DNA of 64,000 nt from Candidatus Parcubacteria bacterium (GTDB lineage: Bacteria; Patescibacteriota; Minisyncoccia; UBA6257; 2-01-FULL-56-20). A program made the translations under genes and the position numbers. The stretch spans positions 251-64,250 of the forward strand of contig DAIDJL010000005.1 in the NCBI GenBank assembly GCA_027450205.1, read 5' to 3'. The notes beneath the pieces were generated by a model. The model was given only the letters and a program-made list of their open reading frames with translations. It searched no databases and was not told the origin of the DNA. Below, piece by piece: positions 14,790-64,000 of the stretch (its first letter is position 1; the number at the start of each line of letters is the position of its first letter).

Positions 14790-14799
14790 ATGGAATTCT

Positions 14800-17492: not shown

Positions 17493-19625
<2,133 letters not shown>

Positions 19626-44275: not shown

Positions 44276-44277
44276 CG

Positions 44278-44970: not shown

Positions 44971-44975
44971 TTGCC

Positions 44976-45467
44976 ATGGCGCGCAGAGTTTTCTTCAGTT
45001 TCCATTTCGAGAGGGACATCTGGCGGGCCAGCCAGGTGCGTAATAGTTGGGTTACCAAGCCAGACCGCGAGGAGGCAGGCTTTTGGGATGCCGCGGAATG
45101 GGAGAAGGTCAAGAAGGAAGGTGATGAGGCCATCAAGCGCTGGATCAATAAACAGCTCGATGGAACCTCGGTCACTGTCGTCCTTATTGGCGCGGAGGCC
45201 TCAAATCGCGAGTGGGTCAAATACGAGGTCAAGAGGAGTTATGAACGCGGCAATGGCATGCTTGGAATTTACATCCACAACATGAAGGACCAGAGCGGGA
45301 ATAAGGATAAGGCTGGTGACAGCCTTTTCGGCGAACTTGGCAAAGATAGGTCCGGCGATCCCGTCTATTTCTTCCAGCACTACCCGACTTACGACTGGAT
45401 CAACGATGACGGCTACAACAAGTTGGGAGAGTGGGTGGAAAAGGCTGCTAAGAAAGCCGGGAAATAG
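44976..45467 (+). CDS. ThsB-like TIR domain protein
   Basis: The start was moved to MARRVFFSFHFERDIWRASQVRNSWVTK. Downstream motifs are TSVTVVLIGAEASNREWVKYEV, GMLGIYIH and YDWINDDGYNKLGEWV. It resembles Thoeris ThsB from memory only, not verified. Confidence 0.55.
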   Translation: MARRVFFSFHFERDIWRASQVRNSWVTKPDREEAGFWDAAEWEKVKKEGDEAIKRWINKQLDGTSVTVVLIGAEASNREWVKYEVKRSYERGNGMLGIYIHNMKDQSGNKDKAGDSLFGELGKDRSGDPVYFFQHYPTYDWINDDGYNKLGEWVEKAAKKAGK

Positions 45468-45747
45468 TACACAGGGTGGTCTGAGTCGGATTCGGTCACG
45501 AAAACTCAGCGCAGCAGTTTTCATCTTTCGCGACCGCCCTCAACACCTCATCCAGAGCATACCCACAGAAGAAGCCTCAGATTAGCAGGAGTTCCCGAGG
45601 CCGCACTGATCCCCGCTGGGGAATACCGCACAGAATGCCTGGAAAACTTGCTGTTTAGCGCAGGTTCTCGCGTCTTGAGTGCATCCGTGTTCACGCTACC
45701 CTTAAAGCAAAGGTCGCAAAAGCAGAGGTCTTTGACAGCTCGCACAT

Positions 45748-46113
45748 ATGGAGTCCCAACCTGCGGCAAGCTACCTCCGGATGTACCGCAAAAAGTCCGG
45801 GCTCAGCCAGCGTGAATTGGCAGAGGTGCTCGGACTGATCACGGAATGGCGCATATCTGAGCATGAACGGTCGATCACGGTCCCGCGCCTCCTTACCGCG
45901 ATCAGTTACGAGGTCGTCTTCAATGCTCCGCTTGCTAAGTTGTTCCCCGGAATCTATGAGACCGTCCGAGGAAACATCGAGTCCCGATTGGCAGAACTTG
46001 AGTCCCGGCTGCAGGAGAGCGATGCCAAAGGGCGCGCCGCAATACCGATCGCTCGGAAGCTGGAATGGATTTGCGAACGAAAGAATCTTGCAGCCGACGA
46101 AGTCCCCGCGTAA
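45748..46113 (+). CDS. XRE-family helix-turn-helix transcriptional regulator
   Basis: The HTH is LRMYRKKSGLSQRELAEVLGLITEWRISEHER. Confidence 0.6.
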   Translation: MESQPAASYLRMYRKKSGLSQRELAEVLGLITEWRISEHERSITVPRLLTAISYEVVFNAPLAKLFPGIYETVRGNIESRLAELESRLQESDAKGRAAIPIARKLEWICERKNLAADEVPA

Positions 46114-47588: not shown

Positions 47589-50500
47589 TCAGTGCTCCGC
47601 AATCCACGCCCGTGTGAGGGGGCCGAAGTAGCCGGTGGCAGGGATGCCATGGGAGGCCTGAAACTTCTCCAAGGCGAGCTTCGTGTCCATGCCGAAGTAT
47701 TCCGTCTCGTAGCCTAGGGAACCGGCATATGTGGGGACGGAGACTACTGGGAAGCCGTTGGTGTTGAGGTAGTGCTGGAGGCTACGCACCTCAGGGTCCC
47801 GCATGCCGAGGAAGAGGTTTTTCGTGAAGCTCGGGGTCCCTCCACAGAGGGAGGATGCTGATGCGGAGATCGCGATTCCTTTGGTCTCCGCCTCCGTTAC
47901 AAGGGAACAGAGGGCATTGACCAGCATGGTGAGGGTGAGGAGCGGAGAGGAGGAGGACGAGACGATCGTGGAGGAGCTCACGATAAGAAGGGCGCCGTTT
48001 CCTGAAGAGGAAGAGGATGCCGTGGAGGAGGAGGGCGCGGGGGCGAAGTAGGAGCCACCACCACCCGATGAATAGACGATGCCTCCTCCAGTTCCTCCAC
48101 CACTAGTCGCTTTGGAGCTCTTCGAAATCACATAAATATGGACCGCCGAGTCGCTAAAGGTGTCCGTGAAGACGCCGTTCGTCACAGGCACCGAGCGGCT
48201 TTCGTTGTATACTACGGCGTCGCCGGTCGGATTGGCACCGTTGATCGTAATCGTCGTCGAGAGCGGCGTACTGCTCTCGTTAACGTCGGTGAGGCGCGCA
48301 GCGAACACATAGATGTTGTTCGCATCCTCACGCACCATGACATCCACACGGTTGTCAGCGCTATCTCCGGTGCGATTCGTTGACACCGAAAGGGTCGTGC
48401 TGCTCAGGATGACGCTCGAGAAATGCTCCGTGTCCGTCACGAACTGAGAGAGGACGCTATAATCCTGCGGAGTCTCATCGGTCCATCCTGCAGGGCCCCA
48501 CCAAGAGACGCCCTTCATACCGTGGATGACCGCAAGCCATGCCTCCATGTTTACCTGCGCCGCGGTTGGACCATATCCGGAGCACGGTTGCGAACTATCG
48601 CAAAGACCAGCTTCGATGAATGCAATCCGCGGTACCAGATTGTAGGTGTAAGCCGCGATCGCGTCCCAATTGGTCACTTCGTCAGCGACCGTCCATCCGC
48701 TCGTTTGGTAAATAAATGGATAAATATCCGAGGCATACACATCAGTGAACATCGGGGTGCTGTTTGGAACGATTGAAAAATACCAACCGTTCTGGCGATC
48801 GGCTATGGGATAATAGCCCGCCAAGTTTGTGACAACTGGATGGTTGGGGTCATTCTCGTTCGTTGCCTGCGTAAGGGCAAGCATCCTACTTGGCAACACA
48901 TGCCCTGGCGTGGGACCAATATCTGGTTCATCCATCCATGTCCACATGAACAAATTCGGATTGCTGCGATCATTATTCACATAGCTGATGGTGGTAGTTA
49001 CGGCATTTGGATCGTTCGCGGCATATGTTGAGGAGGTTTGTCCGGTCCAATTCCCATCTGGACCGATAAATGGCGCTCCTACTGTGTCCATGCAGGTATT
49101 GAATTCGGTGTAGTTATACGCATAATTATTCTCCCAACAATCGCTCCATCCATAAGCGTTCACCGATGAGCTCGCAAGCCATTGATTAACCCATGCAGCG
49201 CTCCCATCGATAAAAGGAGTGACGGGGAAATAAGGCTGTCCGTTGAGGTAGATGTCATTGTTAGCGTCAATGTAGACGCCACTCGGCAGACCGTTTGTGT
49301 ACTTTGTGATTGTCCCATTGTAGACGGCTTTCTGCGTGCCGTTCGCGTTCTCCAGTTGGACCTCGAAGGAATGATTGCCCGCGGCAAGCGAACTTACGTC
49401 GACCGAGAGCCGCTCATGGTTCGTCATCGAACCGTTTTGCGTATAGACCCTGGTGCCGTCAATGCTTGCAGTGAGAATATCGGTGGGCGACTCCCCCCAC
49501 ATCGTCACGTCAATGGGGATGGCGCTTCGGTCTGCTGCATCGGGATAGCGGACGGTGATATTGGCGGTGGGTGTAGCAATCGGCGCATTTGAAAGGTCGA
49601 AGTCGTCGAAATATGCCGATCCGGTTTGCGTCCCGTCAGCATCATCGAATCCAAGGTAGACCCGCGTAAAGGGGCCAGCGATAGTTTGACCCGCTAGATA
49701 GATATCCTGCGCTCCATCGAGGATCACCGATTCGATCCCATCCCCACTCCCCGCAACCGTATGCACCTCAACAGAATGCCACGCCCCTTTCGAGACGGCA
49801 ATCGCCCCCCTATTGCCATTGCTGTCCTGAAGATAAAACGAGCCTCCACTGCAGGCCAACCATAATTGCGTGGTTCCCTCATAGATCACGACCGGATTCG
49901 TTTCGGTGTATGCAGGATCAATATAGAAGTAGAAGCGGGCATAAAGGGCCGTGGAGGTGGGTATGTTTTCGAGAAGTTTTACAGAGCCGCCACTGACAGG
50001 CAGGGTTGCTCTGAATGAATACTGGCCCGAATGGACAGTCGAAGTGGATATCGCATACTCGCCATTCAAATAGACGGCATCCGAAGTAGTGGCCGATCCC
50101 GTGCCTGACCAAGCACTGAAGTCGCCCGTTTCAAAATCATCAAAGAAAAGAATGCTGGAACTCGGCGTGGTTACCTGGATACTAGTGGAAGTGACCGATG
50201 CCAGTCCCGAGGTATCGAATGCCTGGACAGAATATGTATAGGTCGTACTTGCGGTGACGCTCGTGTCGATAAAAGTTGGAATCGACGAAGAGGCAATGCT
50301 CGAGGTAGGCGTACAGGAACCTATACATCGAAAGATAGTGTATCCCCCGAGGCCGGGACCCGAAGGATCGGTAGAGGTCGCCCATGAAAGATTGACGGTG
50401 CCCGCGTCCATTGCTGCGCCCACAACGCTCGTGGGGGTGGTAGGCGGTATGCTGTCGATCGTAACCGTCTGGGTCGAGGTTGCGCTACCACCGGGGTTTG

Positions 50501-51395
50501 TGGCGGTGAGAGTGTAGATGGTGGTACTTGTGGGGTTTACCGTGATGGAACCGGAAAGGGTGGTCGTAGATAGCGCGAATCCACCAACGTTCGCGGCGAT
50601 CCCCACGGAGGATGCGTTATTGACAGACCAGGAAAGTGTCGATGAGCCACCCGAGAGGATGAATGCTGACGAAACCGAGAAGGAAGCGATAGAGGGGACC
50701 GCGACGCTATCCGTCGCTTCAAAGGTAGCGATGCCATTGTACGCGACAGACGGCGATGACGTTGCATAAGCGGTGGCACTATAACCTCCGGCGAGACTTG
50801 CTACCTTGTATTCGAGAAGACCTGCGTTTGTAGCCGGGCCTGGCATGGCAACGAGGGTAGACCAGGTGCCAGTCGGCGCGAAGACATCATATCCATCATT
50901 AAAATGTCCGATCAGTAGCTCATCGGTGGCGGAAGTGAATACTGTCGGCGTGGAGGTTGGCGATGTTGAGGTCGCCACTTTGTCGAGTGGAATACTTGAT
51001 ATCCCAGAAAATGATGCAAAGAGACAACCTCCGGACCCGTTCGAGTTCGCTCTCGTGCATGTTATTGAATCCGGTCCAGTAGACGTAGCGATTGCATAAA
51101 ATACTTCCTGTTGCCCTCCTGAGGTTGTCGAAGAATACGGCTCCGCGACCTGGAATACACTCCCTAGACTGCTTGACGCGCCGTAAAAGGTCTGTCCCGC
51201 GCCACTTTCTATCCACACGTACATGAGATTGCCGGCGGTAGAAGTCACGTTCATCGTGCAGCTTGTGCTTCCAATGCTGCATGTTGAAGTTGCGACGAGC
51301 GAAATCGTTGCTTTCACTTGCCCGGCCATCCCGAAAAACACGTACAATAAACAACCTGTTACGAGCGCATTTATTAGGAGTCGCCGCAATGTCAT
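47589..51395 (-). CDS. giant secreted cell-surface protein with an Ig-like repeat, an FN3 domain, a putative glycoside-hydrolase-like central region and a C-terminal peptidoglycan-binding domain
   Basis: The signal is MTLRRLLINALVTGCLLYVFFGMAG. The Ig-like repeat is STLSWSVNNASSVGIAANVGGFALSTTTLSGSITVNPTSTTIYTLTATN. The FN3 is PPTTPTSVVGAAMDAGTVNLSWATSTDPSGPGLGGYTIFRCIG...TTYTYSVQAFD. The C-terminus (RSLQHYLNTNGFPVV...LALEKFQASHGIPATGYFGPLT) is PG_binding_1-like. It is paralogous to 1..2990. Confidence 0.7.
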   Translation of the reverse strand: MTLRRLLINALVTGCLLYVFFGMAGQVKATISLVATSTCSIGSTSCTMNVTSTAGNLMYVWIESGAGQTFYGASSSLGSVFQVAEPYSSTTSGGQQEVFYAIATSTGPDSITCTRANSNGSGGCLFASFSGISSIPLDKVATSTSPTSTPTVFTSATDELLIGHFNDGYDVFAPTGTWSTLVAMPGPATNAGLLEYKVASLAGGYSATAYATSSPSVAYNGIATFEATDSVAVPSIASFSVSSAFILSGGSSTLSWSVNNASSVGIAANVGGFALSTTTLSGSITVNPTSTTIYTLTATNPGGSATSTQTVTIDSIPPTTPTSVVGAAMDAGTVNLSWATSTDPSGPGLGGYTIFRCIGSCTPTSSIASSSIPTFIDTSVTASTTYTYSVQAFDTSGLASVTSTSIQVTTPSSSILFFDDFETGDFSAWSGTGSATTSDAVYLNGEYAISTSTVHSGQYSFRATLPVSGGSVKLLENIPTSTALYARFYFYIDPAYTETNPVVIYEGTTQLWLACSGGSFYLQDSNGNRGAIAVSKGAWHSVEVHTVAGSGDGIESVILDGAQDIYLAGQTIAGPFTRVYLGFDDADGTQTGSAYFDDFDLSNAPIATPTANITVRYPDAADRSAIPIDVTMWGESPTDILTASIDGTRVYTQNGSMTNHERLSVDVSSLAAGNHSFEVQLENANGTQKAVYNGTITKYTNGLPSGVYIDANNDIYLNGQPYFPVTPFIDGSAAWVNQWLASSSVNAYGWSDCWENNYAYNYTEFNTCMDTVGAPFIGPDGNWTGQTSSTYAANDPNAVTTTISYVNNDRSNPNLFMWTWMDEPDIGPTPGHVLPSRMLALTQATNENDPNHPVVTNLAGYYPIADRQNGWYFSIVPNSTPMFTDVYASDIYPFIYQTSGWTVADEVTNWDAIAAYTYNLVPRIAFIEAGLCDSSQPCSGYGPTAAQVNMEAWLAVIHGMKGVSWWGPAGWTDETPQDYSVLSQFVTDTEHFSSVILSSTTLSVSTNRTGDSADNRVDVMVREDANNIYVFAARLTDVNESSTPLSTTITINGANPTGDAVVYNESRSVPVTNGVFTDTFSDSAVHIYVISKSSKATSGGGTGGGIVYSSGGGGSYFAPAPSSSTASSSSSGNGALLIVSSSTIVSSSSSPLLTLTMLVNALCSLVTEAETKGIAISASASSLCGGTPSFTKNLFLGMRDPEVRSLQHYLNTNGFPVVSVPTYAGSLGYETEYFGMDTKLALEKFQASHGIPATGYFGPLTRAWIAEH

Positions 51396-51474
51396 TGAGG
51401 TGTGGAATAAATAATAGATATAATGGCGGAGGGTTCGAGTTACTCTGTTTTAATTATACTAAATAATATGAAAC

Positions 51475-52980
51475 CTAACGAGCACAGCGAAAGCCAATAT
51501 AATAATCAGGGCCGGAAGCTCCCCAGTTGACACTCAGCATAAAGAGTCCGCTCGTCCACCCACTGTTATAGTCGTTGCCGCGATCAAAATCCCATGTGCC
51601 CTGATTGCCACCGTTGAGATACGTCAGAAGCGCTCCCATTCCTTGTCCAGAATTCCAGCTATTCGGAGGCGCTACTTCGTTTTGGGGGACATCCGATGTC
51701 CAGTTCGATACATTGGTGAATTCGCACCAGCTCCAGGTCGCACCTCCCCCTGAACAGGAAGGCACGTTCATGGTATTCGTGGCGTCACCTTGATCCATCG
51801 TGCTTCGTTGTACGTGCTCATCCACATTTCCCGCCAAATCCCAAATGACCGAGCCATCGGAAAGTACGAGTGTGCGGCGCTGATTTTGAGCAGCAGAACC
51901 GCCGGTTCCTGTACCACCGCCTGAAGTCGGACCGTCGGTGCCTGTATATCCATCAGCATCATTCGGGCCCGCCGGAGAAACTGCATTGGGGATACCGTCG
52001 TTATGGCCGGAATACACATACCCGGAGCCGACCGATCCGCCCGACCAGTTCGCCGCCTGCCCAACTGCATTCATGGCGATCGTCATATACTCATCGTTCG
52101 TGAGAAGATGCGCACCGATGGAATCGCAGTATTGCTTTGCGGTAGGTTCGCTCACAAATCCAATGGGCCATCCACCGGGCAGTGATGAAATTTGACGACC
52201 GTTGGCAGTGCTGCATGCATAAGATGCATCGTCATACGTGTCATATCCGGAATTGTAGTCATTCAAATAATTCCCTTTACCGTCAGAACACACTGCGTCG
52301 TATTTCATCACCCAGAATGCGGGCGTCCCATACGTCGGGTTGCCGGGAACCAAGACCCAGTTCCGCCCACCCGCAATAGTCTGGCTGCTCCCGCTCCGGA
52401 ACAGATTGGGATTTGCCCCGGTGGCTGCGATCTGTTTCTGTGATTCAGGCACCGCGATCAGTTTAAAGTTCGTTCCGTCGGTCAGATACTCGTAATACAG
52501 ATTGGTCGAGGTCTGATTTGAGGGATCGACGGGCAGCGATCCCAGCGGAGACCCGCTTGATATGTTTTTGAAATCCACCGGGATCCATCCCGTGCCGTCT
52601 ACGTTCCGATACGTTGAGCTCGCCGCGCAATGGAAATATCCTCCCGAAGGGAAGCCCAGCCCCGAACAATCCGTGCCAGCGGAGCTGGTAGCGGTGGGAT
52701 CGGGGATGGAGATATATGCAACATTAGGGGTACCCAGAGAGTAAGAACTATTTCCGCTCTGGTCAGCCATATATGTCTGAATTGCATTGGTCAGAGTATT
52801 AAGGTCAGATAAGCGATTGACATCCCGTGATTGCTTCAGAAGCTCGGCGGGATTGAGGACGAGAACGACGACCACGGCAAGGATGGCGAGGATGGCGATG
52901 ACGACGAGAAGCTCGATGAGGGTGAAGGCCCTCTCGCTATTCCTCCGCTCCGCATGGTATGAAGAGGATGGTGCGGCCAT
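51475..52980 (-). CDS. type IV pilin-like protein with a C-terminal FGE-sulfatase (C-type lectin fold) domain
   Basis: The prepilin N-terminus is ERAFTLIELLVVIAILAILAVVVVLV. The first ~150 aa are paralogous to 3079..4359. The C-terminus GNDYNSGWTSGLFMLSVNWGASGPDYYIGFRCAR carries the FGE-sulfatase signature (GGSW...YIGFRCA). Confidence 0.7.
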   Translation of the reverse strand: MAAPSSSYHAERRNSERAFTLIELLVVIAILAILAVVVVLVLNPAELLKQSRDVNRLSDLNTLTNAIQTYMADQSGNSSYSLGTPNVAYISIPDPTATSSAGTDCSGLGFPSGGYFHCAASSTYRNVDGTGWIPVDFKNISSGSPLGSLPVDPSNQTSTNLYYEYLTDGTNFKLIAVPESQKQIAATGANPNLFRSGSSQTIAGGRNWVLVPGNPTYGTPAFWVMKYDAVCSDGKGNYLNDYNSGYDTYDDASYACSTANGRQISSLPGGWPIGFVSEPTAKQYCDSIGAHLLTNDEYMTIAMNAVGQAANWSGGSVGSGYVYSGHNDGIPNAVSPAGPNDADGYTGTDGPTSGGGTGTGGSAAQNQRRTLVLSDGSVIWDLAGNVDEHVQRSTMDQGDATNTMNVPSCSGGGATWSWCEFTNVSNWTSDVPQNEVAPPNSWNSGQGMGALLTYLNGGNQGTWDFDRGNDYNSGWTSGLFMLSVNWGASGPDYYIGFRCAR

Positions 52981-54520: not shown

Positions 54521-54847
54521 ATGGAGCGGGAGGCCATCATCATCGATTCGGACATGAGTCACGCCACTGAACTGCAGCATGCGCTGAAGTCTATCGGCTG
54601 CAAGGCAATGGTATACAGCGACAACAAGATTGCCTTGGAAATGATCGAGCGGCATCGTCCCGATCTGGTGATCGTGGTCCCTCGCTCCCCGATGACGCTG
54701 GCTGACGCGCTTCTGTCTGTACGGACAGCCGTGAAGCATCTGGAAATCCAACCGGAACTCCTTTTTGTGCTCAGGTGGACGCCTCGGGGACCGGCAGAGC
54801 GTCTCTTGGGTGATCGATGGAAGGTGCAGGTGGTCTATGAACGATAG
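54521..54847 (+). CDS. receiver (REC)-like domain protein
   Basis: AIIIDSD...PDLVIVV resembles the CheY-like acidic pocket. The SD GGAAGGAGG lies 5 nt before the ATG. The call is weak. Confidence 0.3.
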   Translation: MEREAIIIDSDMSHATELQHALKSIGCKAMVYSDNKIALEMIERHRPDLVIVVPRSPMTLADALLSVRTAVKHLEIQPELLFVLRWTPRGPAERLLGDRWKVQVVYER

Positions 54848-55373
54848 GGAACCGATCGTTCGGGTTGTCGAGGAAGTCGAGTACCTGCTTGCACGACGGA
54901 AGCGCATGGCGCAAGAACGCCCGCGCCTGGAGGTCGTGCACGGCTATCACCAATTGGGAACGATTTGCGTTCCCGGGGAAACAATCGACGGATGTTTTCT
55001 CCGGTTTTCCGAGCGGGAGATCCCGATTCCCCTCTCCCTGCCGGGTCTCATGCTCTGTGACTGCCTGGTGCGGCATCGTCACACGCCGCTCAGCATCGCG
55101 CGTCTTGAGCGCATTCTGACCAATGACCCCTTCTACCGGCGTCTCGGTGCAAATTCATTCGAGCATATCGTGGAGACGCCCATGTTCACGCGCGTTTCGC
55201 TCAGAGTCTACATCGCACGGCTGCGCGAGCAAATTGCGAAGGCAATGAGAAAGGGCGGATCGACGCTTTCGCCGGACGACGCGCTGGTAGCGGATACGAC
55301 GGACTCGAACGTGGTGGTGCATCGCATCACTCTGCCGGTTGCAACAGTCCACCGAACGGCGAAGCTCAAGTAA
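54840..55373 (+). CDS. hypothetical protein with a possible winged-helix DNA-binding C-terminus
   Basis: There is a 4-bp overlap with the upstream REC-like gene. VYIARLREQIAKAM resembles the OmpR-type wing helix. Confidence 0.3.
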   Translation, partial: NDREPIVRVVEEVEYLLARRKRMAQERPRLEVVHGYHQLGTICVPGETIDGCFLRFSEREIPIPLSLPGLMLCDCLVRHRHTPLSIARLERILTNDPFYRRLGANSFEHIVETPMFTRVSLRVYIARLREQIAKAMRKGGSTLSPDDALVADTTDSNVVVHRITLPVATVHRTAKLK

Positions 55374-55405
55374 TCCCGCGAAACTCGACGCGGAGAGGGA
55401 TCGAC

Positions 55406-55654
55406 ATGTACCGGATCGTCACGGAAGACAAGAACGTGGAAGGGATCAAGGCGGCGCTCATCGCCTTTGATCTCGACTTCACGCTCTTCCGTGGCATCGG
55501 ATCGTGGCGGGGTAGAGAGGAGCCAAGCCTCGCGGTCGAGCTCGACCGCATTTCCCGGGAAACTGCGGAAAGCGTCGCCCTCAGCATCAAGGCGATGAAC
55601 GATCAGGAGGCGGTCCTCCTGCAAGAGTTTCCTATCAAGACGGACCTCCTCTAG
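55406..55654 (+). CDS. small hypothetical protein
   Basis: An 82-aa ORF with an ATG start and no motif. A competing minus-strand ORF exists. Confidence 0.2.
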   Translation: MYRIVTEDKNVEGIKAALIAFDLDFTLFRGIGSWRGREEPSLAVELDRISRETAESVALSIKAMNDQEAVLLQEFPIKTDLL

Positions 55655-55878
55655 GAAGTCACTCTTCGAAGACCCCTCTGTTGGGTCTGTTGCAGTGTAA
55701 TTTTTTCTGTATGTAATCAGCTTCTTTGCAGGGAGTATCGGCATGATGCCGTCTAGAAATCCTGTCAGATTTGCGTGAGGGCATCGACCGCTACAAAATC
55801 GACTACATCGATGTAGCGGGAAAAAGCAGATGCGTGGCCGGAATCGGTCATATCAGATGAAATATCTAAGGTTTACGA

Positions 55879-55930
55879 TGGTCGGGGCGGAGGGATTCGA
55901 ACCCCCGACCCTCTGCTCCCAAAGCAGAAT
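55879..55930 (-). other. 3' fragment of a tRNA-Pro(TGG) gene (anticodon arm through CCA), a likely att-site remnant of an integrative element
   Basis: The minus strand reads TCTGC-TTTGGGA-GCAGA-GGGTC-GGGGG-TTCGAAT-CCCTC-CGCCCCG-A-CCA. It has a perfect anticodon arm (loop UUUGGGA, as in E. coli proM), a T-arm and an acceptor 3' strand with encoded CCA. The upstream 5' half (needs CGGGGCG + D-arm) is absent. Confidence 0.55.
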
Positions 55931-56004
55931 AAGGCGGCTATGGTTCCTTGTGGAAATCTGCTGCGTGGTTGTGCTTTGGATTGAATGGGTTAGAGTATCG
56001 CTAC

Positions 56005-57285
56005 TTACCCTTGTTGATCGTTGTGGCTCTCGGAGGCTTTGACCGCTACAAAATCATCTACATTCAGGATTTCTCGTTGTATCGGCAAAAGGGGCGACCA
56101 GAGGAAAGCTCCGCCGGAAACCGGAGACGAATCACAAAGGTTTATCGCCTCAACCCACGTCATCGCGACGGCAAGTAGCCCAAGCGACGGTGCAGTCGCT
56201 TGGATATTCTCGAACATGACCCGACCACAATCCCCGGGCCCATCGCCGAGTGTTTCGGCAAACTGCGGTGCGGTGTTCGTGTTCATTGGCTCGGTAAAGA
56301 TGACCTTCGCGATCTCACGACTTGGCGGAAGCGAATGCCAGCTTATGCGGGGCCGACAGAAATTCGTACCAACACCGCACTCGACGAGCCAAGGGAAGCC
56401 CGCCTCCACTGCAATTCGCCTAGCATCCATATTGTCGAAGCCGAGAAAGGCAAACGCAGACTGCAATTTACCGCACTTCCAACCCCATTTGATTTCACGT
56501 TGTTCTTCGGTGACGACCCATCCCCAGCCTCGGCAGAGCGCGGCAAGATATTCGACCTTAGGTTTATTGCGCCAAAGTTCTAATGCTTGCTCTTCTAGGA
56601 GTATCTGAGTCCGCTGGTTACAATCCTCAAACGGATCCTTATCGAGGAGATGAACCCGAAGTCTCTGCCCATTCGCCAAAAAGAATGCCAAGGCCAGAAA
56701 CGCTTGCCCGACCTGCCCGGCGCCTAAGACTGAAAATGGGGGTAAAACGATCTCTGAGGGCACGATTGGGAGACTGACCGAGTTTTGGACCCACGCCTCG
56801 CGGAAGGGAGGGATACCAACGGCTTGTGCAAGCGCAGAAAATGCCAAGTAACCGGATATTGCGCACGCGCAGATCGGATGAGCCGGATTATGTCCCGGCA
56901 GTGTCGTTCCGTAAGCAATCTCATTACCACGCGCATCTCCCCTGATTTCGATTCCGTGCCCTTGCTCGCCTGGTATGTCGCCGAGGAGGATGCGAATGCC
57001 ACCTTCCGGTTCACCGCTTCGAAGCTCGCACCGAGGTCCTAGCGCGACCGGTGCCGATGGCATCTGGTCTAATCCCGCATGGATGAGAATCCGTCCGGTG
57101 AACTGACGCTCGAGGGCCGAAGCCAGAAACCAAACACACGGCCAAAGGTCATTCGCAGTCGCTCTCGTCGGTTCGACGATGATTGAGACATCTTTAGCGA
57201 GACGACGATCAAGCTCTTCAGACGTCAATGCATCGATATCGGCCTTCAGAAGCCCGTTGATAATCCGATCATTATGGCGTTCCAT
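56005..57285 (-). CDS. E1-like (ThiF/MoeB/UBA superfamily) ubiquitin-activating-like enzyme
   Basis: The Rossmann motif is FSVLGAGQVGQAFLALAFFLA, in a 426-aa protein. It is last in a 4-gene minus-strand operon with JAB, E2-like and Ubl-like genes. Confidence 0.65.
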   Translation of the reverse strand: MERHNDRIINGLLKADIDALTSEELDRRLAKDVSIIVEPTRATANDLWPCVWFLASALERQFTGRILIHAGLDQMPSAPVALGPRCELRSGEPEGGIRILLGDIPGEQGHGIEIRGDARGNEIAYGTTLPGHNPAHPICACAISGYLAFSALAQAVGIPPFREAWVQNSVSLPIVPSEIVLPPFSVLGAGQVGQAFLALAFFLANGQRLRVHLLDKDPFEDCNQRTQILLEEQALELWRNKPKVEYLAALCRGWGWVVTEEQREIKWGWKCGKLQSAFAFLGFDNMDARRIAVEAGFPWLVECGVGTNFCRPRISWHSLPPSREIAKVIFTEPMNTNTAPQFAETLGDGPGDCGRVMFENIQATAPSLGLLAVAMTWVEAINLCDSSPVSGGAFLWSPLLPIQREILNVDDFVAVKASESHNDQQG

Positions 57286-57293
57286 GCTGAGCC

Positions 57294-57875
57294 TTATACA
57301 AGTACGACGCGTCGGCCAATTTCTGATCCACGAAATTCATGCCAGCCGTCGTTAGTTCGCGCATGAATCCCAATTCGCGCTAAATCCCACGGCTCTCGAC
57401 CGTACCAAGGCACCACAAGCGACCAGAACCCGATCCGTGAGCATATCTGGTTGTCTTCATCGACCGCACTTAGTCCGACCCAGTCTCGCGGATGCGTATG
57501 AATGAGCGAAACGATCTTTTGGCCTTTTGTCGCAAGCGTACGATACAGTTCGAATTTCGCTCGCTCCGAGAGCTCAAGCGAGAGCGGTCCAGCATTGTCT
57601 TCGCAAAGTTCGTGGTGATAAAGCACGTCGGAGGCGATCGCGTCGTCGCCATCCAATGACCCGATCCAGATTGCCGCGCTTTCCCGCCATCCGGCGCTCC
57701 GGTCAGCCAATTGCCGGAGCGTTCTCTCGAATAACGACTGTGGAACCAGCAGTCGAGTATGCTTTAGCTCTTCCGGTTGTACCCGCGCCCGGGAACGTGA
57801 AGCATCGTCCTCAGAAAATCGAGGTATCCCACGATTTGGTTTTCCTTTTTTTGCCATGCTCGGCTTTGTCTCCAT
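57294..57875 (-). CDS. JAB/MPN (JAMM) metallopeptidase, deubiquitinase-like
   Basis: The JAMM motif is HTHPRDWVGLSAVDEDN (HxHx7Sx2D), with an upstream Glu. The track TTG start was moved to ATG (METKPSMAKK). Confidence 0.65.
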   Translation of the reverse strand: METKPSMAKKGKPNRGIPRFSEDDASRSRARVQPEELKHTRLLVPQSLFERTLRQLADRSAGWRESAAIWIGSLDGDDAIASDVLYHHELCEDNAGPLSLELSERAKFELYRTLATKGQKIVSLIHTHPRDWVGLSAVDEDNQICSRIGFWSLVVPWYGREPWDLARIGIHARTNDGWHEFRGSEIGRRVVLV

Positions 57876-58198
57876 TCTGGGTGGTGGTGAATCCCTTGGC
57901 GATCTTGATCCCAACAGATAAACCCAGGTGACGACCTAAATTTGATTGTGCCTTCAAAAGTCACATCGCCATCGGGCCATACTTGCGGACTACCGCACGG
58001 GATGAACGAGCAGCTGATCGGCTCATTCCAATATCCAGTACAATCGAACCGCGCCAAGAACCCTCGACCATCGGGGGCGTTCAGACGTACTTGCACTACG
58101 TCGCCATCTCGCCCCGCGAGTTCCCAGAAACCCTGATCTACACCGGCCCGAAATTCCGGGGATGCAACGTCGCGCGTGAGCCGTTCGCCGCTATCCAT
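57764..58198 (-). CDS. candidate E2-like (UBC-fold?) conjugating enzyme
   Basis: A 144-aa Cys-containing protein (FICWDQDRQGIHHHPEW) sits between the Ubl-like and JAB genes. The assignment rests mainly on operon position. It overlaps the upstream gene by 8 bp. The 57764 end overlaps the JAB coding region, so the true stop may differ. Confidence 0.3.
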   Translation of the reverse strand: MDSGERLTRDVASPEFRAGVDQGFWELAGRDGDVVQVRLNAPDGRGFLARFDCTGYWNEPISCSFIPCGSPQVWPDGDVTFEGTIKFRSSPGFICWDQDRQGIHHHPEWRQSRAWQKKENQIVGYLDFLRTMLHVPGRGYNRKS

Positions 58199-58682
58199 TT
58201 CTTTCCGGTCCCGGCTTCACGAGCCACACCGTCTTGCAGCCCTCAAAGCTTCCGATGTGTTTGTTCTCGTTGATCGCGGGGCCTTCCGGACTGCCCTCTC
58301 GCATCTCAAGATTGGCGCTCGCGGTGTGCGCGATCTTGAAGTGCTTGCACGCCCACTGAAATACGTGCTTCCACTTGGCACGGGCGGGAAAGTGGTGGGT
58401 CGCAGACTCACTTTCAAAGTGGATATCAACGCACTCCAGCTTGAGTTTGCCGTGGTGCCGACCTGGATGGTAGCACTCGGCTTCGGCGGTGAATTCCTCG
58501 ACGAGTTCTTCTGTTCCGAGGGCGAGCACCGAAGCCAACTTCTCGGCTAGGTGCCTGTGGTTGGGTTCCACATCGCACTCGACCTTTACGCTTTCCACCG
58601 GCCTGCCGTGACGATGGACTTCAATCGTCACGACTACCGCTTCCCCGGCGGAACCTCCTTCGCTAAGCTGCTGGTTTTCCAT
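58191..58682 (-). CDS. candidate ubiquitin-like (tandem beta-grasp?) protein ending in Gly
   Basis: It is the first gene of the operon. The start was moved from the GTG to ATG (MENQQLSEGG) with an SD-like AAAGGAAAA. The C-terminus is ...LVKPGPERNG*. VVVTIEVHRHGRPVESVKVECDV and KLKLECVDIHFESE look like beta-grasp strands. Confidence 0.3.
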   Translation of the reverse strand: MENQQLSEGGSAGEAVVVTIEVHRHGRPVESVKVECDVEPNHRHLAEKLASVLALGTEELVEEFTAEAECYHPGRHHGKLKLECVDIHFESESATHHFPARAKWKHVFQWACKHFKIAHTASANLEMREGSPEGPAINENKHIGSFEGCKTVWLVKPGPERNG

Positions 58683-58818
58683 AGGTTGTAGTTTTCCTTT
58701 CTGTCTCCGCACTTGACGGAGCGACAGGATGACCTTATCCTGTAATAGGAAGTCTAGCGAATCGCCCCGTAGGTGTCAACACCATCAGGATGTGAATATC
58801 CTGTGCAAGGACAAAACC

Positions 58819-59184
58819 ATGAGCATTTACGAACAAATCGGAGCGAAAATAAGAGAACTTCGGGTGCATCACCTCGGAAAGGGAATCAGCCAGGAAACCC
58901 TTGCCGAAGCGATGAACACTACCCCCAACACGATTTCCCGATGGGAAACCGCCACATATAAACCATCCATTGAGGATTTGGAGAAATTGGCACGGTATTT
59001 CGGAACCACCATCGGGGTATTCTTTCCAAACATCGATCCGGGGGCACGCGTTCAGGCACTCCTCAGTGCTACAGGCGACCTCGACGATGATGACCTTGAC
59101 GAGCTTACCCGTTACGCACAGTTTCGTCGGGCCAGGAAGGAGTTGGATCAGGCGAAGAAACGAGGGAAGCGAAAAGCGCTATGA
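58819..59184 (+). CDS. XRE-family HTH regulator (CapH-like)
   Basis: The HTH is LGKGISQETLAEAMNTTPNTISRWET. The start was moved to ATG (MSIYEQIGAK). It is divergent from the Ubl operon and overlaps the downstream peptidase gene by 4 bp. Confidence 0.6.
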   Translation: MSIYEQIGAKIRELRVHHLGKGISQETLAEAMNTTPNTISRWETATYKPSIEDLEKLARYFGTTIGVFFPNIDPGARVQALLSATGDLDDDDLDELTRYAQFRRARKELDQAKKRGKRKAL

Positions 59185-59819
59185 TGGCGAATCCAAACTA
59201 CGCATCACTAAAGGAGCTTGCGCGAGCGAAGAGGGCGCAATACGGTGTGACTACCGAGGCTCTCAACCTGATCGTAGTGAGGAAGATTTACTCAGACGAA
59301 GGGATTCGCATCGACAATTGGGAGTTCCCGCGAACCATCCGCGCTGCCTACATGAGCGATGACGCGGACCCTTCGGTCGCGATCAACAAGACACTGCCGA
59401 GAGAACCGCGTCTCTTCTCACTAGTGCATGAGCTGAAGCACCACTACGTTGACCGGCCGAAGATCGAGCAGGGGCAAATCAAGTGCGGCGACTACAACGA
59501 GAACCAGACAATTGAAATTGGAGCTGAGGTGTTCGCCGCCGAATTTATCTATCCGGAAACCGAGTTTCTGGAACGGCTGCAACTCCTGAATATCGAACCG
59601 GGACAATGCTCGCCCGAGGATGTTGTACGCCTCAAGCGCGAATGCAGGGCCTGCGTCAGCTATCAGTTTCTAAGGAAACGGCTCGTGCGGCTGGGATTCG
59701 CCATGCCTCACGCCTTCGATAAAATCCAGTTTCAAAAACTCGAAGAACAACTGTATGGGCCGCCGATCTACAAGCAGAAATGGTTCCAGCGGCGGCGTGG
59801 TCGTGCCCAGGCAAAATAG
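59181..59819 (+). CDS. ImmA/IrrE-family zinc metallopeptidase (CapP-like, DUF955)
   Basis: The HEXXH motif is VHELKHHYVD, with a downstream Glu/Cys-rich region. Confidence 0.65.
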   Translation: MMANPNYASLKELARAKRAQYGVTTEALNLIVVRKIYSDEGIRIDNWEFPRTIRAAYMSDDADPSVAINKTLPREPRLFSLVHELKHHYVDRPKIEQGQIKCGDYNENQTIEIGAEVFAAEFIYPETEFLERLQLLNIEPGQCSPEDVVRLKRECRACVSYQFLRKRLVRLGFAMPHAFDKIQFQKLEEQLYGPPIYKQKWFQRRRGRAQAK

Positions 59820-59957
59820 CTGGACCAATGTCATTTGCCAAATGCATGTGGATGAGTTTTATTTCACTCGCCGGGGCAGAGGATGTCGTTCCTTCACACT
59901 CAGCAACCTCAACGCTGGCGCTTTGGGCTTGATGCTCTCTGACCCTACAGAGTAGTG

Positions 59958-61334
59958 TTACCTGTCACGTCTTCTTGGCCCTTTTCTACTTGCTCCTTTG
60001 CGCTCTGGTTCATCAAGTTTCAGACTCTGAATGCGCTGGAGTAGCTGCGCGGCGGATTCGTAGGACCGGCCTTCGCGCGCAGCAAGATCGGCTTCGGTGG
60101 GCACCAACTCGCCACGGAAGGCCTTGGCGAGAATAGATTGTGGAAGACGATCTATTTGCTGTTGGGTCGCTTTGTAGTGTGCCTCGATCTTGTCTGCGAG
60201 TGCGAATAATACGTTAACACGCCGCACGATCTCCTCTTGCTCTTCGATCAAGGGAAGATTGGCTTCATACTCTTCAAGAAGATCTTTGCGCACCCCATCC
60301 TGCCCAACGGTTCGCTCAGATGAGCTGATTACATAATTGCGTAGCGGCGGATCTTGCAGCAGAATAAAGAGAAAATCGTTATTCAATTCATTAGATGAGA
60401 TCGGCACCGCTTTCATGAGAGCGACGTTGTATGCACCTTCAATTCCCCGCAGAATCTGAAACAGTGGTGGACCATATCGCCCTATCATCACATCAGTCTT
60501 CCTGCAAAGGCGTCGCGCCATATCTTTTGGTATATAGGTCAGGTTGTTATCCGATTTGTAGTCGCGAATTTGAATGAAACGGATATAACCCTCCTGCGCC
60601 TTATAGGCAAAATGCTTCTTCGGTGGTTGACTGCCGCCGATAATCTCACATATGGAACCTATTGTCTTAGTGCCCCAACTTGCAAAATCGATCTCATGCT
60701 CCTCCCGCCAGTCGGCGGTGAGGCGGCCGGAGCAGGCTGCTGCGAGAACGGATTGACGGAAGCGCTTGAGCAGCACTGGAATCTTCGCCATGCGCTCCTT
60801 GCACTGCTCAACTTCCGCGAGGAGCTTCTCCAGCCTTTCCGCGATTCTCCACTGCTCGGCGGAAGGCGGCACCGGGATACATAGTGTTTTTATAAACTCA
60901 GTCGGAACACGAAGCTGCCCCGCCGTACCTGTGAAATTCTCCTTTGCCTGACGACGAACACTGCTCTGTGACAGATATCGATAAACATAAAGCGGGCTAA
61001 TGCCCGACAATGGCCGGGCAACATGCACTTCAGTCGTGCCGCATCCAAGGCCATTCCGTAGATTTCGTGCAACCGCGCCCTTGCCGTTTTCCATACAGGG
61101 AGTGATCTTTGCGAAGAGGACATCGCCGTCTGCAAAATGGGTAAACCCTTTTCGAACATCACCCAAAGGACGCTCTTCTCGAAAAAGAAAATCGGGGGAA
61201 TCTTCGCTGATTGCGGCCATAGGAGCAAACGTAACCATTGTTTTGTCGTCAATGGTTTTGTCATGACGGGGGTTGATTGCTGAAACATCGACGAGTGCAG
61301 CAATATCCCAGCCCTCGGGAAGTTCGTCTGTCAT
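59958..61334 (-). CDS. hsdS: type I restriction-modification specificity subunit
   Basis: There are two target-recognition domains with conserved central/C-terminal helical repeats (LPLIEEQEEIVRRVNVLFALADKIEA). The size is 458 aa. There is a 4-bp overlap with hsdM. Confidence 0.75.
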   Translation of the reverse strand: MTDELPEGWDIAALVDVSAINPRHDKTIDDKTMVTFAPMAAISEDSPDFLFREERPLGDVRKGFTHFADGDVLFAKITPCMENGKGAVARNLRNGLGCGTTEVHVARPLSGISPLYVYRYLSQSSVRRQAKENFTGTAGQLRVPTEFIKTLCIPVPPSAEQWRIAERLEKLLAEVEQCKERMAKIPVLLKRFRQSVLAAACSGRLTADWREEHEIDFASWGTKTIGSICEIIGGSQPPKKHFAYKAQEGYIRFIQIRDYKSDNNLTYIPKDMARRLCRKTDVMIGRYGPPLFQILRGIEGAYNVALMKAVPISSNELNNDFLFILLQDPPLRNYVISSSERTVGQDGVRKDLLEEYEANLPLIEEQEEIVRRVNVLFALADKIEAHYKATQQQIDRLPQSILAKAFRGELVPTEADLAAREGRSYESAAQLLQRIQSLKLDEPERKGASRKGPRRRDR

Positions 61335-62746
61335 GCTTCCACGCCTTCCTCTTTTTCCACGAGGGCGACAATCTCGCGCAGGCTATCCACAATGGCTTCG
61401 AGTTCCGTGATCGCTTCGGCGGCAAGCTCCTGCGGTTCCGGCAGGTCGTCGGAATCTTCGAGGGATTCATCTTTCAGCCAGGTCACGTCAAGCTTGTAGC
61501 CGCGTTCCTTGATGGCCACGAGCGGGAAACTGCGGAAGCGTCCGGTCTCTCCCCCATCCGTTCGCTTACTCTGCCCGTTCGGGTCCTTGCCGTAGGCCTT
61601 TTCGAACTCGGCGAAGTGCTCGCGGGTGAGCGGGCGGTCTTTCTTGGTGATGCCGGGCACGTTGGAGCGGGCGTCGAAAATCCAGACCCTTTCCGTCGGC
61701 AGGCCTTTCTGGAAGAAGATGACGTTTGCCTTGACGCCCTGGCTATAGGGAGTGAATGTTCCGCGCGGAAGGCGCAGCACGGTATGCAGATTGCAGTCCT
61801 GCATGAGGATTTCAAAGACTTCGCCCGCCTTGTCCTCAAAGAGGCAGTTGTCTGGCAACACAATGGCGGCACGGCCGCCCGGCTTGAGCGTATTTACGAC
61901 GTGCTGCACGAAGTTGAGCTGCTTGTTGCTGGTTTCGATGGTGAAGTCTTCGCGCTCGGGTGCCTGGTTAGCCCCCTTGGTGCCAAACGGCGGATTGGTG
62001 AGTACGACATCGTAGCGCTCGCCACGGTCCGGCTCATAGAGCGTGTCGCCGAGATAAATACGCGGCTGGACGCCATGCAGGTAGAGATTCATGAGCGCAA
62101 GGCGGCGCGGGCGGGCGACGAGGTCCTGTCCGTAATACGTCTGCGTGCGGATGCGCTTTGCGTCGGCGCGGTCAAAGACCCCCTTGCTCTCGGCCACGAG
62201 CCATTCGTAGGCGCTCACGAGGAATCCGCCAGTGCCGCACGCCGGATCGGCGATGGTGAAATCCTTGCGTCCGCGCGGATCGGGCTTCATCACGCGACAG
62301 ATGGTCTGGATGAGCACGCGCGGCGTAAAGTATTGGCCCGCGCCCTTCTTGCCTTCGCTTGCGGCCTTCTCAAGCAGTCCTTCAAAGGCGGCGCCTTTCA
62401 CGTCCACGTCGAGAGAGGACCATTCCTCTTCATCGATCATGTCGATCAGGCGGCGGAGATTGACGGGATTGTTGAAACGCGAGGTGGCCTGGGTAAAGAT
62501 GTCGCCGAGCAGCCCTTCGGCGGAGCGCAGCTTGCGCAGCACGTCGTTGTAATGATCGGTGAGGTCGGTGCCGGAGAGTTTCTTCAGAGTGTCCCAGTCA
62601 CATCCTTTGGGTATCTCCACCCCCTTTTCTTCGGCCATCTTCAAAAAGAGCAAATAGGTAAGCTGCTCGATGTAGTCGCCGTAGTCCACGCCGTCGTGGC
62701 GCAGCGTGTGGCAGAAGCCCCAGAGTTTTTGAACGATATCACTCAT
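61331..62746 (-). CDS. hsdM: type I R-M N6-adenine DNA methyltransferase subunit
   Basis: Motif IV is VLTNPPFGTKG and motif I is DPACGTGGFL. The N-terminal HsdM_N helix bundle is present. Confidence 0.85.
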   Translation of the reverse strand: MSDIVQKLWGFCHTLRHDGVDYGDYIEQLTYLLFLKMAEEKGVEIPKGCDWDTLKKLSGTDLTDHYNDVLRKLRSAEGLLGDIFTQATSRFNNPVNLRRLIDMIDEEEWSSLDVDVKGAAFEGLLEKAASEGKKGAGQYFTPRVLIQTICRVMKPDPRGRKDFTIADPACGTGGFLVSAYEWLVAESKGVFDRADAKRIRTQTYYGQDLVARPRRLALMNLYLHGVQPRIYLGDTLYEPDRGERYDVVLTNPPFGTKGANQAPEREDFTIETSNKQLNFVQHVVNTLKPGGRAAIVLPDNCLFEDKAGEVFEILMQDCNLHTVLRLPRGTFTPYSQGVKANVIFFQKGLPTERVWIFDARSNVPGITKKDRPLTREHFAEFEKAYGKDPNGQSKRTDGGETGRFRSFPLVAIKERGYKLDVTWLKDESLEDSDDLPEPQELAAEAITELEAIVDSLREIVALVEKEEGVEA

Positions 62747-64000
62747 GCAGCGATGGCCTCATTGATTTTTTGTACGAGCGCGGGAAGGCGACCCTCGAAG
62801 ACCTTGGCGGCTTTCCCCCATCCGCCAAAATCGCTCAAAACCGGCTGACTGTCGAAGTCATCCTGATCGATGGAGAGATTCTCCTGCAGGTGCGTCCGGA
62901 TGCGGTCGAGCCAGACGAGTTGATCGGCGGTGAAGGCGTTGCCATTTTGGATGGCGTGCATGGCCCGGTCCGCGCGTTCTGAGGCGTTGAGGAGCGGGTT
63001 TTGGGTATCGGCGGCGTTCTTCACCATGGAGATGATGTCGGCAAGTGCCTTGTGGCGGCGCAGTTCAAAGGCTTTTTGGAGATTGGGCACGGTGAACCGC
63101 TGCGGCGTGGCGGCCAGCGTGTCGCGCAAGGACTTGAGCGCGTCGGGGTTCCAATTCTGCGGATGCTTGAGCAGGATCGCAATGGCGTCGATGTCCGACT
63201 GATGGTCGGCGACGTAGGCGGCAAAGGCGGCGAGATAGTTATCGGGCTTATATTCTTTGCCGTCCAGTCCGCGCACGAGCCATTCGGACGAGACCTCATC
63301 CTGCGCCGTATGGGCGACGAAAAAGACGCGGGGTTTGCGCTTGTAATCCTGGAGCAGGCGCTGGAAGTCAGGATTGCGCAGCAGGCCCATCGTGGGAGTG
63401 AAGTTCTTCTGGAGGGCCGCAGCGAGAGTTTTTGCGAGTGCGGCGAGATCGCCTTCAGGCACGAAGGCGGCAAAATCCGCGCGGGCATCGCCGTGCATTT
63501 CCTTATCAATGCGCTGGAGACGCTTGGTGAGGCAGCGAATGTTGTATTCCCGGTCCCGATTGGCCCAGATGTCCTCGACGATCTCAGGGATAGTGCGCGT
63601 GACTCCGGCGGGCGGATCGGCGGTCATGGCCGTCGATTGGCGGAAGTATTCGAGCAGGGTTCCGTCGAAGCAATCGAAGACGACGAAATGCGATTTGTCG
63701 GGATACTTTTCGCCTTTGCGCGTGCCACGCCCCAACATCTGCTCGAAGAGGATGCGGGACTTTACGGGGCGCAAAAAGACAATGAATTCGAGATCGGGGA
63801 TGTCCACGCCGGTGGTGAGCATATCCACGGAGACCACAATCCCGGGATTGGGGCGGTTGCGGAACTCTCGGATGCGCTGAAGCGGGCGGTCCACGGTTGG
63901 GCTGCCGGTGATCTTCTGGACGAAGGAGTCTCCCCTGCCGAAGACATCCCGCGCCTGGTCCACGAGTTGGTCCGCATGGGAGGTGTGCGGAAGGTCGTTC
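62743..64000 (-). CDS. hsdR: type I restriction enzyme R subunit (C-terminal part; 5' end beyond window)
   Basis: Helicase motif VI is VDMLTTGVDIPDLEFIVFLRPVKSRILFEQMLGRGTR. The frame is open to the window end (the track start GTG is not real). There is a 4-bp overlap with hsdM. Confidence 0.75.
   Translation of the reverse strand, partial: NDLPHTSHADQLVDQARDVFGRGDSFVQKITGSPTVDRPLQRIREFRNRPNPGIVVSVDMLTTGVDIPDLEFIVFLRPVKSRILFEQMLGRGTRKGEKYPDKSHFVVFDCFDGTLLEYFRQSTAMTADPPAGVTRTIPEIVEDIWANRDREYNIRCLTKRLQRIDKEMHGDARADFAAFVPEGDLAALAKTLAAALQKNFTPTMGLLRNPDFQRLLQDYKRKPRVFFVAHTAQDEVSSEWLVRGLDGKEYKPDNYLAAFAAYVADHQSDIDAIAILLKHPQNWNPDALKSLRDTLAATPQRFTVPNLQKAFELRRHKALADIISMVKNAADTQNPLLNASERADRAMHAIQNGNAFTADQLVWLDRIRTHLQENLSIDQDDFDSQPVLSDFGGWGKAAKVFEGRLPALVQKINEAIAA

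Follow-up and report, generated by a model that had tools for sequence, protein, structure and literature searches.

The DNA analysed here is a 64,000-nt stretch (the window) of contig DAIDJL010000005.1, positions 251 to 64,250, in assembly GCA_027450205.1, deposited as Candidatus Parcubacteria bacterium. It contains, at positions 55879-55928 of the minus strand, the 3′ part of a tRNA-Pro(UGG) gene that has in all likelihood been displaced by an integrative element lying to its right. In the mechanism we propose, the element would recombine with the tRNA-Pro(UGG) gene at the anticodon arm and bring its own tRNA 3′ portion, with the gene being rebuilt at the far end; the old 3′ portion would remain at the near end, next to a terminal arm of the element, here designated P (55929-56063). 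This mechanism is ordinary and well known. The novelty lies in the family of elements, in arms that are defined by sequence and in the slots for defence cargo in Acidobacteriaceae.

The fragment reads TCTGCTTTGGGAGCAGAGGGTCGGGGGTTCGAATCCCTCCGCCCCGACCA, and its anticodon, TGG, can be read directly. It is composed of the anticodon stem-loop (TCTGC-TTTGGGA-GCAGA), variable loop (GGGTC), T arm (GGGGG-TTCGAAT-CCCTC), acceptor 3′ strand (CGCCCCG), discriminator base (A) and CCA, and constitutes the attachment-site core. The block matches exactly 50 of the 77 nt of the gene (nucleotides 28-77); the preceding base is T in the window and A in intact genes, the sequence upstream of the fragment (...CCGCCTTAT) is not tRNA, and positions 55929-55930 are likewise non-tRNA. 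The preliminary description of this stretch, drawn from the sequence alone, had placed an exact 50-nt tRNA-Pro 3′ part lacking a 5′ half within the 52 nt of 55879-55930; we retain the identification and limit the identity block to the 50 nt of 55879-55928. With up to three mismatches allowed, no tRNA-Pro 5′ half is found anywhere in the window, and no complete tRNA-Pro covers the fragment; at the same tolerance the 50-mer is single-copy in the window, with zero matches expected from 100 shuffles. Because it is half a gene, ARAGORN and Rfam call no tRNA at the fragment, where Rfam returns only noise both at the gathering threshold and at E ≤ 10. The only tRNAs called by these programs in the window are tRNA-Asp (17364-17439) and tRNA-Gly (43354-43425).

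An exact scan with the 50-mer, using one genome per species, yielded at least 120 loci, and the hosts of those listed are mostly Acidobacteriaceae (Terracidiphilus, Granulicella, Edaphobacter and others), with a few Verrucomicrobiota. For 118 of the 120 matches listed, CGGGGCGTAGCGCAGyCTGGTAGCGCA precedes the 50-mer and completes an intact 77-nt tRNA-Pro(TGG). The matches listed also include one contig that starts within the tRNA-Pro gene (L054), and only one copy shortened like that of the window (L074), to which the viral contig L001 adds another.

The cut side of the fragment faces higher coordinates and the cargo on that side, as had been described: the stop codon of bilD, an E1-like gene, lies at 56005, 76 bp away, and between fragment and cargo the DNA has the form of a conserved element terminus, the P arm, ending in the motif TTGACCGCTACAAAATCATCTACAT at 56038-56063. 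Scanning metagenomes with a degenerate pattern across the fragment/arm junction identified at least 120 loci, mostly on peat and soil contigs, and 116 unique copies were aligned from the anticodon-arm core through approximately 147 nt. The median pairwise identity among these copies is 68% within the arm and 27%, the random level, past the motif, with conservation dropping sharply at the start of the cargo. The nhmmer profile derived from the 115 other copies, excluding the window, matches window positions 55908-56063 over its full length (E = 2.5e-31), placing the island to the right of the fragment, where the preliminary description had it. Window positions 55873-56062 (the fragment plus 135 bp) can be aligned with units in L095, L051, L124 (two copies) and L123, and all of these copies, including that of the window, diverge right after the motif TTGACCGCTACAAAATCGACTACA. 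A second fragment or arm was sought in the window at up to three mismatches and a profile E ≤ 10, and none was found except for a motif copy at 55774-55809. Viral contigs scanned for the terminal motif gave six chance matches within coding sequence, none of them with arm context.

Since the same breakpoint and the same 135-bp neighbour recur in at least 120 contigs, we regard the junction as an integration scar. A tRNA pseudogene arising through ordinary deletion or rearrangement, or an assembly chimera, would involve no site-specific recombination, and is compatible with the lack of a GC shift at the junction and with the draft status of the assembly; this recurrence in independent contigs, together with a viral contig (L001) that carries the same 50-nt fragment opposite a tyrosine integrase, leaves it with hardly any credibility. 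It is also very improbable that the fragment and the following 135 bp form a non-coding RNA gene or a small coding gene rather than a recombination site. Conservation of the unit is strong, and open reading frames (ORFs) cross it in 41 loci, but RNAalifold recovers no consensus structure on either strand of the arm unit other than the anticodon stem, column entropy of the arm shows no clear 3-nt periodicity (0.95, 0.90, 0.87), and a search of the arm unit against Rfam returned no family match. In view of this lack of RNA fold and coding signal, the unit is best considered a conserved DNA site.

The window contains an imperfect direct repeat of 29 nt on both sides of the fragment (55780-55808 and 56035-56063). 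The terminal motif shared by the two arms is a putative arm-type protein-binding site, and the features of the arm fit sites of this kind, which selection must preserve. We infer that recombination takes place in the anticodon loop. A model that puts the crossover in the terminal motif rather than in the anticodon arm was set aside, for it leaves the presence of a tRNA fragment within the unit unexplained. In total, 23 units, including those in L139, L142, L144, L187 (two copies), L242 and L123, have only an 18-nt anticodon-arm core, before which three TCAACA repeats with 11-bp spacing take the place of the tRNA T arm and acceptor strand. These units suggest that some elements integrate into existing fragments rather than into a live tRNA gene.

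The cargo read in the window begins with four adjacent minus-strand genes matching, in operon order, the four PADLOC profiles of the BilABCD ubiquitin-like conjugation system: bilD (E1-like, 56005-57285; BilD, 6e-23), bilC (JAB-type, 57294-57914; BilC, 3.2e-20, aligned from residue 51), bilB (E2-like, 57764-58198; BilB, 2.5e-15, and Pfam DUF7665, 2.1e-12) and bilA (ubiquitin-like, 58191-58712; BilA, 3.4e-8). The true start of bilC probably lies downstream of the listed TTG. Divergent from this operon, 17 bp from the start of bilA and on the plus strand, a capH-like helix-turn-helix (HTH) regulator (58729-59184; Pfam HTH_3, 2e-14; PADLOC capH, 7.9e-7) is followed by a capP-like M78 peptidase gene (59181-59819; Pfam Peptidase_M78, 1.2e-10; PADLOC capP, 1.3e-9), the PADLOC scores of this pair being modest. 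A type I restriction-modification (R-M) system comes next on the minus strand, with hsdS (59958-61334; Pfam Methylase_S, 7.3e-19), hsdM (61331-62746; Pfam N6_Mtase, 3.1e-62, plus HsdM_N) and the 3′ part of hsdR (62743-64000; Pfam EcoEI_R_C and Helicase_C), which has no stop before the end of the window.

The boundary between arm and cargo can be placed within bilD. Its product is 80% identical to the BilD of L124 up to residue 407 and then diverges, with the last 19 codons consisting of P-arm sequence and the native last nine codons of L124 absent. As bilD reads into the P arm past residue 407, the cargo starts exactly at the outer edge of the arm motif. The genes that follow bilD in L123 and L124 (YdjM, DUF3892 and a 95-aa gene) are gone from the window (56005-56071).

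HsdM homologues with 85-99% identity are present in many Acidobacteriaceae contigs. Among relatives of the right side, L251-L254 share 93.65% nucleotide identity with the window over 2,693 nt (61308-64000), and L255 shares 87.6%. The gene order in L251 and L255 starts with MethyltransfD12 and a DUF87/TrwB-like ATPase, continues with Replic_Relax, a pair of small genes, Phage_integrase of 373-391 aa and another five small genes, and ends with hsdR (898-904 aa; 904 aa in L251), hsdM, hsdS, variable cargo, the P arm and the tRNA-Pro fragment; shorter stretches of it are seen in L252 and L253. The P-arm profile matches L251, L252, L253 and L255 with E-values from 1e-34 to 5e-40, and the Phage_integrase gene lies 2.8 kb upstream of the hsdR start in L251-L253 and L255. 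L124 has the same backbone, with 65-70% nucleotide identity to that of L251 and L255; its hsdRMS genes are deleted save for a 115-nt remnant of the hsdS 3′ end, and its Bil and CapH/CapP cargo is 86% identical to window positions 56072-59820. The same cargo slot holds an RHS protein in L257-L259. In L256 (16786-20240) it holds a CapP/CapH-like pair by a Multi_ubiq/ThiF/BubE operon, with Vsr and an HNH gene, a different ubiquitin-like system that appears from its gene content to occupy the position of Bil in the window. Since the content of relatives differs there, we define the region from the last small gene of the backbone to the P-arm motif as a variable cargo region; all three systems attributed to the island in the preliminary description (Bil, CapH/CapP and type I R-M) fall between the P arm and the conserved backbone of relatives.

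Large serine recombinase genes adjoin the D12 methyltransferase in the backbone of L256 (5354-6829), L257 (5220-6797) and L260 (5552-6904), their products bearing Resolvase and Recombinase domains and, in L256 and L260, Zn_ribbon_recom. The backbone ATPase has approximately 1,950 homologues at E ≤ 1e-80. Towards the attL side of the backbone, its far end, L256-L259 show neither a tRNA nor an arm within 10 kb of the ATPase gene, indicating that the element is large. The set of tyrosine integrase, Replic_Relax and DUF87/TrwB_AAD_bind ATPase in these relatives presumably resembles that of small integrative elements of the actinomycete integrative and conjugative element (AICE) type, which have an integrase, a replication-relaxation protein and a single FtsK/TrwB-like ATPase. 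The backbone differs from AICE-like elements in its additional D12 methyltransferase and large serine recombinase and in its Acidobacteriota hosts.

Beyond the cargo read from the fragment, the element in the window would by synteny continue with five small genes, the tyrosine integrase, two small genes, Replic_Relax, the DUF87/TrwB-like ATPase, the D12 methyltransferase and the large serine recombinase. Its far end would carry further genes, an arm of the opposite type (P′) and the intact tRNA-Pro, after which tRNA-His and tRNA-Arg are found in relatives. In window coordinates, the L251 gene order predicts that hsdR should start near 65.5 kb and that the tyrosine integrase should lie at about 68.3-69.4 kb.

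Islands with both ends visible illustrate this arrangement. In seven loci (L132, L168, L197, L222, L229, L051 and L095) the unit has an intact tRNA-Pro(TGG) at a distance of 1.7-6.4 kb, on its cargo side and in the same orientation, which is the geometry anticipated in the preliminary description. The intact tRNA-Pro is followed by tRNA-His in L095, L132, L168 and L229 and by tRNA-Arg in L132 and L168. The cargo of these short islands includes a cytochrome bc operon, a peptidase, Sel1-repeat proteins, RHS toxin fragments, an insertion sequence and Y1-type transposases. A longer case is provided by a public contig, DAIDLI010000118.1 (77,009 bp), represented in our set by two non-overlapping loci, genome loci having been defined as 8-kb blocks. 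L013 carries intact tRNA-Arg, tRNA-His and tRNA-Pro, and L255 (contig positions 51449-72864) carries the backbone, integrase, hsdRMS, cargo and P arm, with the fragment at 17853-17901 of the locus, on the same strand as the tRNA-Pro of L013 and with the integrase between them. The tRNA can lie no further along the contig than position 44,382, which gives the island a length of at least 24.9 kb. This contig presents the canonical order of tRNA-Pro, integrase and fragment, in the orientation predicted.

The tRNA-Pro gene is an active target used by more than one element family, since a second, phage-type tyrosine integrase family is found directly beside the intact gene in L098, L096, L043 and L052. 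On the prophage contig L001, the integrase opposite the 50-nt fragment is of this phage type. C-terminal remnants of this prophage-type integrase also occur beside P-arm units in L152 and L247, and are evidence for mixed tandem arrays.

The sequence on the CCA side of the fragment bears on the nature of the boundary. The 100 bp at the CCA end (55780-55878) have 83-89% identity with what lies directly downstream of the intact tRNA-Pro in about 20 Acidobacteriaceae loci; on its 5′ side, tRNA-Pro is accompanied in these loci by a divergent tRNA-His and frequently by a tRNA-Arg(TCT). This similarity places the organism in or near Acidobacteriaceae. The same flank, taken as 55774-55878, is 70-79% identical to that at the intact tRNA in L132, L229 and L222, as against a mean of 56% and a maximum of 63% in shuffled controls, and compares at background level (54-58%) with the flank beside the fragments of these three loci. 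Standard integration puts element sequence beside the regenerated tRNA, and we therefore assign this flank type to the P′ arm of the family. The P′-type arm of the window (55774-55878) repeats the terminal motif in direct orientation at 55774-55809 (profile match, E = 4.8e-5), and window positions 55774-56063 thereby form a P-core-P′ module of approximately 290 bp with the same motif in direct orientation at both ends, the copies lying some 100-115 bp to each side of the anticodon loop.

To the left of this module, the plus strand (54643-55654) carries three small conserved genes, a response-regulator-like gene (~107-120 aa), p178 (54765-55373, listed as a 202-aa ORF) and p82 (55406-55654), with 72-87% nucleotide identity to L262 and L263. 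Neither p82 nor p178 has a Pfam match, and a search for their function gave a single weak PHROG match of unknown function. L260 presents the order integrase, Replic_Relax, DUF87, MTaseD12, serine recombinase, six small genes, p178, a kinase cassette, P′ flank and tRNA, and p178 thus lies within the element, at its tRNA-proximal end. The longest contigs listed for p178 homologues and for backbone ATPase homologues have the same length in four cases, which suggests that the two share contigs. We take the genes at 54643-55654 as the probable tRNA-proximal end of an older member of this family, and the fragment as a probable internal junction between two elements accreted in tandem, of which the left one has decayed, rather than as a border between island and core. 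In such an accretion, the older, left element would have regenerated the tRNA, a second element (the right one) would have integrated into that tRNA, and the older one would later have lost its backbone. The island boundary proposed in the preliminary description thus holds as an integration scar, as attested by the arm profile, and probably fails as an island/core border, given the P′-type left flank and the p178 of L260.

A competing account regards the left flank, p178 and p82 as native chromosome and the resemblance of P′ to the host flank as the outcome of past capture, with the fragment as a simple island/core boundary. It is a serious possibility, if short of a probable one. The order p178, p82, flank, fragment is constant in L262 and L044 while the island differs; L013 combines an intact tRNA and the flank with a p178 homologue 1.3 kb away; and the part of the window to the left has no second fragment or arm. 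Conversely, the flank type is clearly element-borne in L132, L229 and L222, p178 lies inside the element in L260, between backbone and flank plus tRNA, and the sequence past the flank in L251 is unrelated to the window. Accretion itself can be examined in the window with mixed results: the P arm is on the right, the P′-type arm on the left and p178 belongs inside an element of the L260 kind, yet no second fragment or P arm appears leftward.

The closest relative of the left side is L263, whose p178 is 91% identical to that of the window and whose sample also yielded L124. L263 carries (5292-7876), between p82 and the P′ motif, a cassette of the CBASS type (antiphage signalling based on cyclic oligonucleotides), made up of an S24 LexA-like protein, a CD-NTase and Cap15. 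The insertion corresponds to the interval between window positions 55679 and 55785, in which the window has just 105 nt, and abuts the motif; as read from this alignment, the CBASS site appears to be a second cargo slot bounded by the same motif. The end of L263 and the start of L124 both fall within the tRNA T arm, with overlapping sequence, and the two are probably adjacent contigs. Joined, they would read p178, p82, CBASS, P′, fragment, P arm, kinase cassette, fragment, P arm, Bil with CapH/CapP, and backbone, and would reproduce the architecture of the window with extra cassettes.

In a bolder and distinctly unlikely proposal, the 24-34 nt motif ending both arms (CTCGGAGGnnnnGACCGCTACAAAATCGACTACAG) would be more than an arm-type binding site, namely an active cassette-exchange site served by the backbone tyrosine integrase or the large serine recombinase. 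The family would then be an integron-like platform swapping entire defence systems at two slots beside the tRNA-Pro site, and the systems swapped would be Bil, Bub, CBASS, type I R-M, RHS toxins and toxin-antitoxin pairs.

Several observations weigh against displacement by an element that lies to the right of the fragment and remains complete. The source contig (64,342 bp) ends 342 bp past the window, and the integrase and intact tRNA-Pro of this particular island lie out of view. None of the seven short islands has an integrase between its ends, GC content is flat across the junction, and the element-like flank on the supposed chromosomal side defeats a simple island-versus-core picture. Searches for an integrase in the window were negative, both by tblastn with two integrase queries and by domain among the ORFs scanned in the 44-64 kb interval, and the window hsdM and hsdS gave no match through which the contig could be extended.

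The lack of integrases in all seven short islands indicates that many family members are decayed, and the right island could itself be a decayed, integrase-less remnant resembling a cis-mobilizable element (CIME), with fragment and arm as fossils and nothing functional past the contig end. The shortening of bilD by nine codons at the arm agrees with this possibility as well. We nevertheless consider it unlikely, as the hsdR-hsdM region of the window is 93.65% identical to that of L251-L254, where the integrase backbone directly follows hsdR, and the same order is found in L255 and L124. We infer that the element in the window still holds its integrase and intact tRNA; support for both comes from the synteny of relatives and not from the sequence of this strain.

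In the Islander survey, genomic islands are recognized by a tRNA gene (tDNA), a same-orientation 3′ fragment downstream of it and a tyrosine integrase between the two; 3′ fragments were present in 3760 of 3919 islands, with 2083 anticodon-centred sites, 125 tandem arrays and attP regions of about 250 bp (PMC4383910). The fragment at 55879-55928 is a terminal tRNA piece outside any full-length tRNA gene, and its identity extends, as in Islander class A, from the anticodon stem-loop to the 3′ end of the tRNA. Its orientation also agrees, with the element arm on the cut side and, on the 3′ side, sequence like that downstream of intact tRNA-Pro (83-89% identity). Like class A islands, the locus combines a direct-orientation 3′ tDNA fragment starting from the anticodon stem with an attP-sized module (~290 bp, 55774-56063) and an integrase in relatives. 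Unlike them, its integrase and intact tDNA are off the contig, and each of its two arms terminates in one shared direct repeat of 24-34 nt, which variable cargo abuts exactly.

Tandem accretion is known for integrative and conjugative elements (ICEs), integrative and mobilizable elements (IMEs) and CIMEs (PMC5704250). As in accretion of the ICESt1 type and in CIMEs, several direct-orientation units of fragment and arm can coexist (two each in L124, L187, L180 and L242), att-bounded segments without integrases occur, and the window junction has a P arm on one side and a P′-type arm on the other. The present case differs in its Acidobacteriaceae hosts and in a backbone that belongs to no known ICE or IME family. 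With regard to the cargo, BilABCD is a ubiquitin-like conjugation defence system (bioRxiv 10.1101/2023.09.04.556158), and the window has its adjacent ubiquitin-like, E2, JAB deubiquitinase and E1 genes; the system is here a predicted one, and differs in that BilD has lost its native last nine codons to the arm. CapH and CapP are two-protein regulators of immune operons (bioRxiv 10.1101/2022.04.27.489752), and the HTH and M78 peptidase genes of the window are likewise divergent beside a defence operon, although the pair is attached here to Bil instead of CBASS, and that of L256 lies beside Multi_ubiq/ThiF/BubE.

Other genes and features were observed in the vicinity of the arms. An antitoxin/RelE-like pair lies at a constant distance past the P arm in nine loci, and an IS481-like rve transposase of 346 aa lies near the arm in 14 loci (L146, L165, L209, L226, L168 and L187 are among the loci with the pair or the transposase). 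The transposase was considered as the recombinase of the element and dropped, since it lies at differing distances from the arm. CTAC/GTAG hairpin elements, similar in appearance to repetitive extragenic palindromic (REP) sequences, are present in the arm motif. In re-oriented copies of L197 (3487-4215) and L180 (1861-2568), the P′ arm directly adjoins a gene of 235-242 aa, which from its sequence motifs may be read as Y1/IS200-like, of the type of REP-associated tyrosine transposases (RAYT-like).

Elsewhere in the window, the region 43354-46113 contains two ThsB-like TIR genes (44278-44970 and 44874-45467; PADLOC, 1e-79 and 4e-70) and an HTH gene (45748-46113), all on the 5′ side of tRNA-Gly(GCC) (43354-43425). 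A low-GC stretch at approximately 5000-17300 (0.43-0.50, versus 0.55-0.60 elsewhere) lies directly downstream of the minus-strand tRNA-Asp, and the genes by this tRNA encode an aminotransferase, a NUDIX protein and an ATP-grasp protein; no integrase was found in this low-GC region, only biosynthetic genes. At 47589-52980, a 1268-aa protein with a C-terminal peptidoglycan-binding domain is encoded beside one of 501 aa whose N terminus bears a prepilin-type methylation motif; each of the two is a singleton at 90% identity in the protein collection.

The analysis fixes one end of a defence island and predicts its content past the contig end. It also outlines a widespread tRNA-Pro-targeting family in soil and peat Acidobacteriaceae for which we found no published description, and whose sequence-defined arms make it possible to pinpoint island ends in fragmented metagenome assemblies. 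Its cargo region is a natural place to search for new anti-phage systems, the phylum being one of which few phage-host pairs have been brought into culture.

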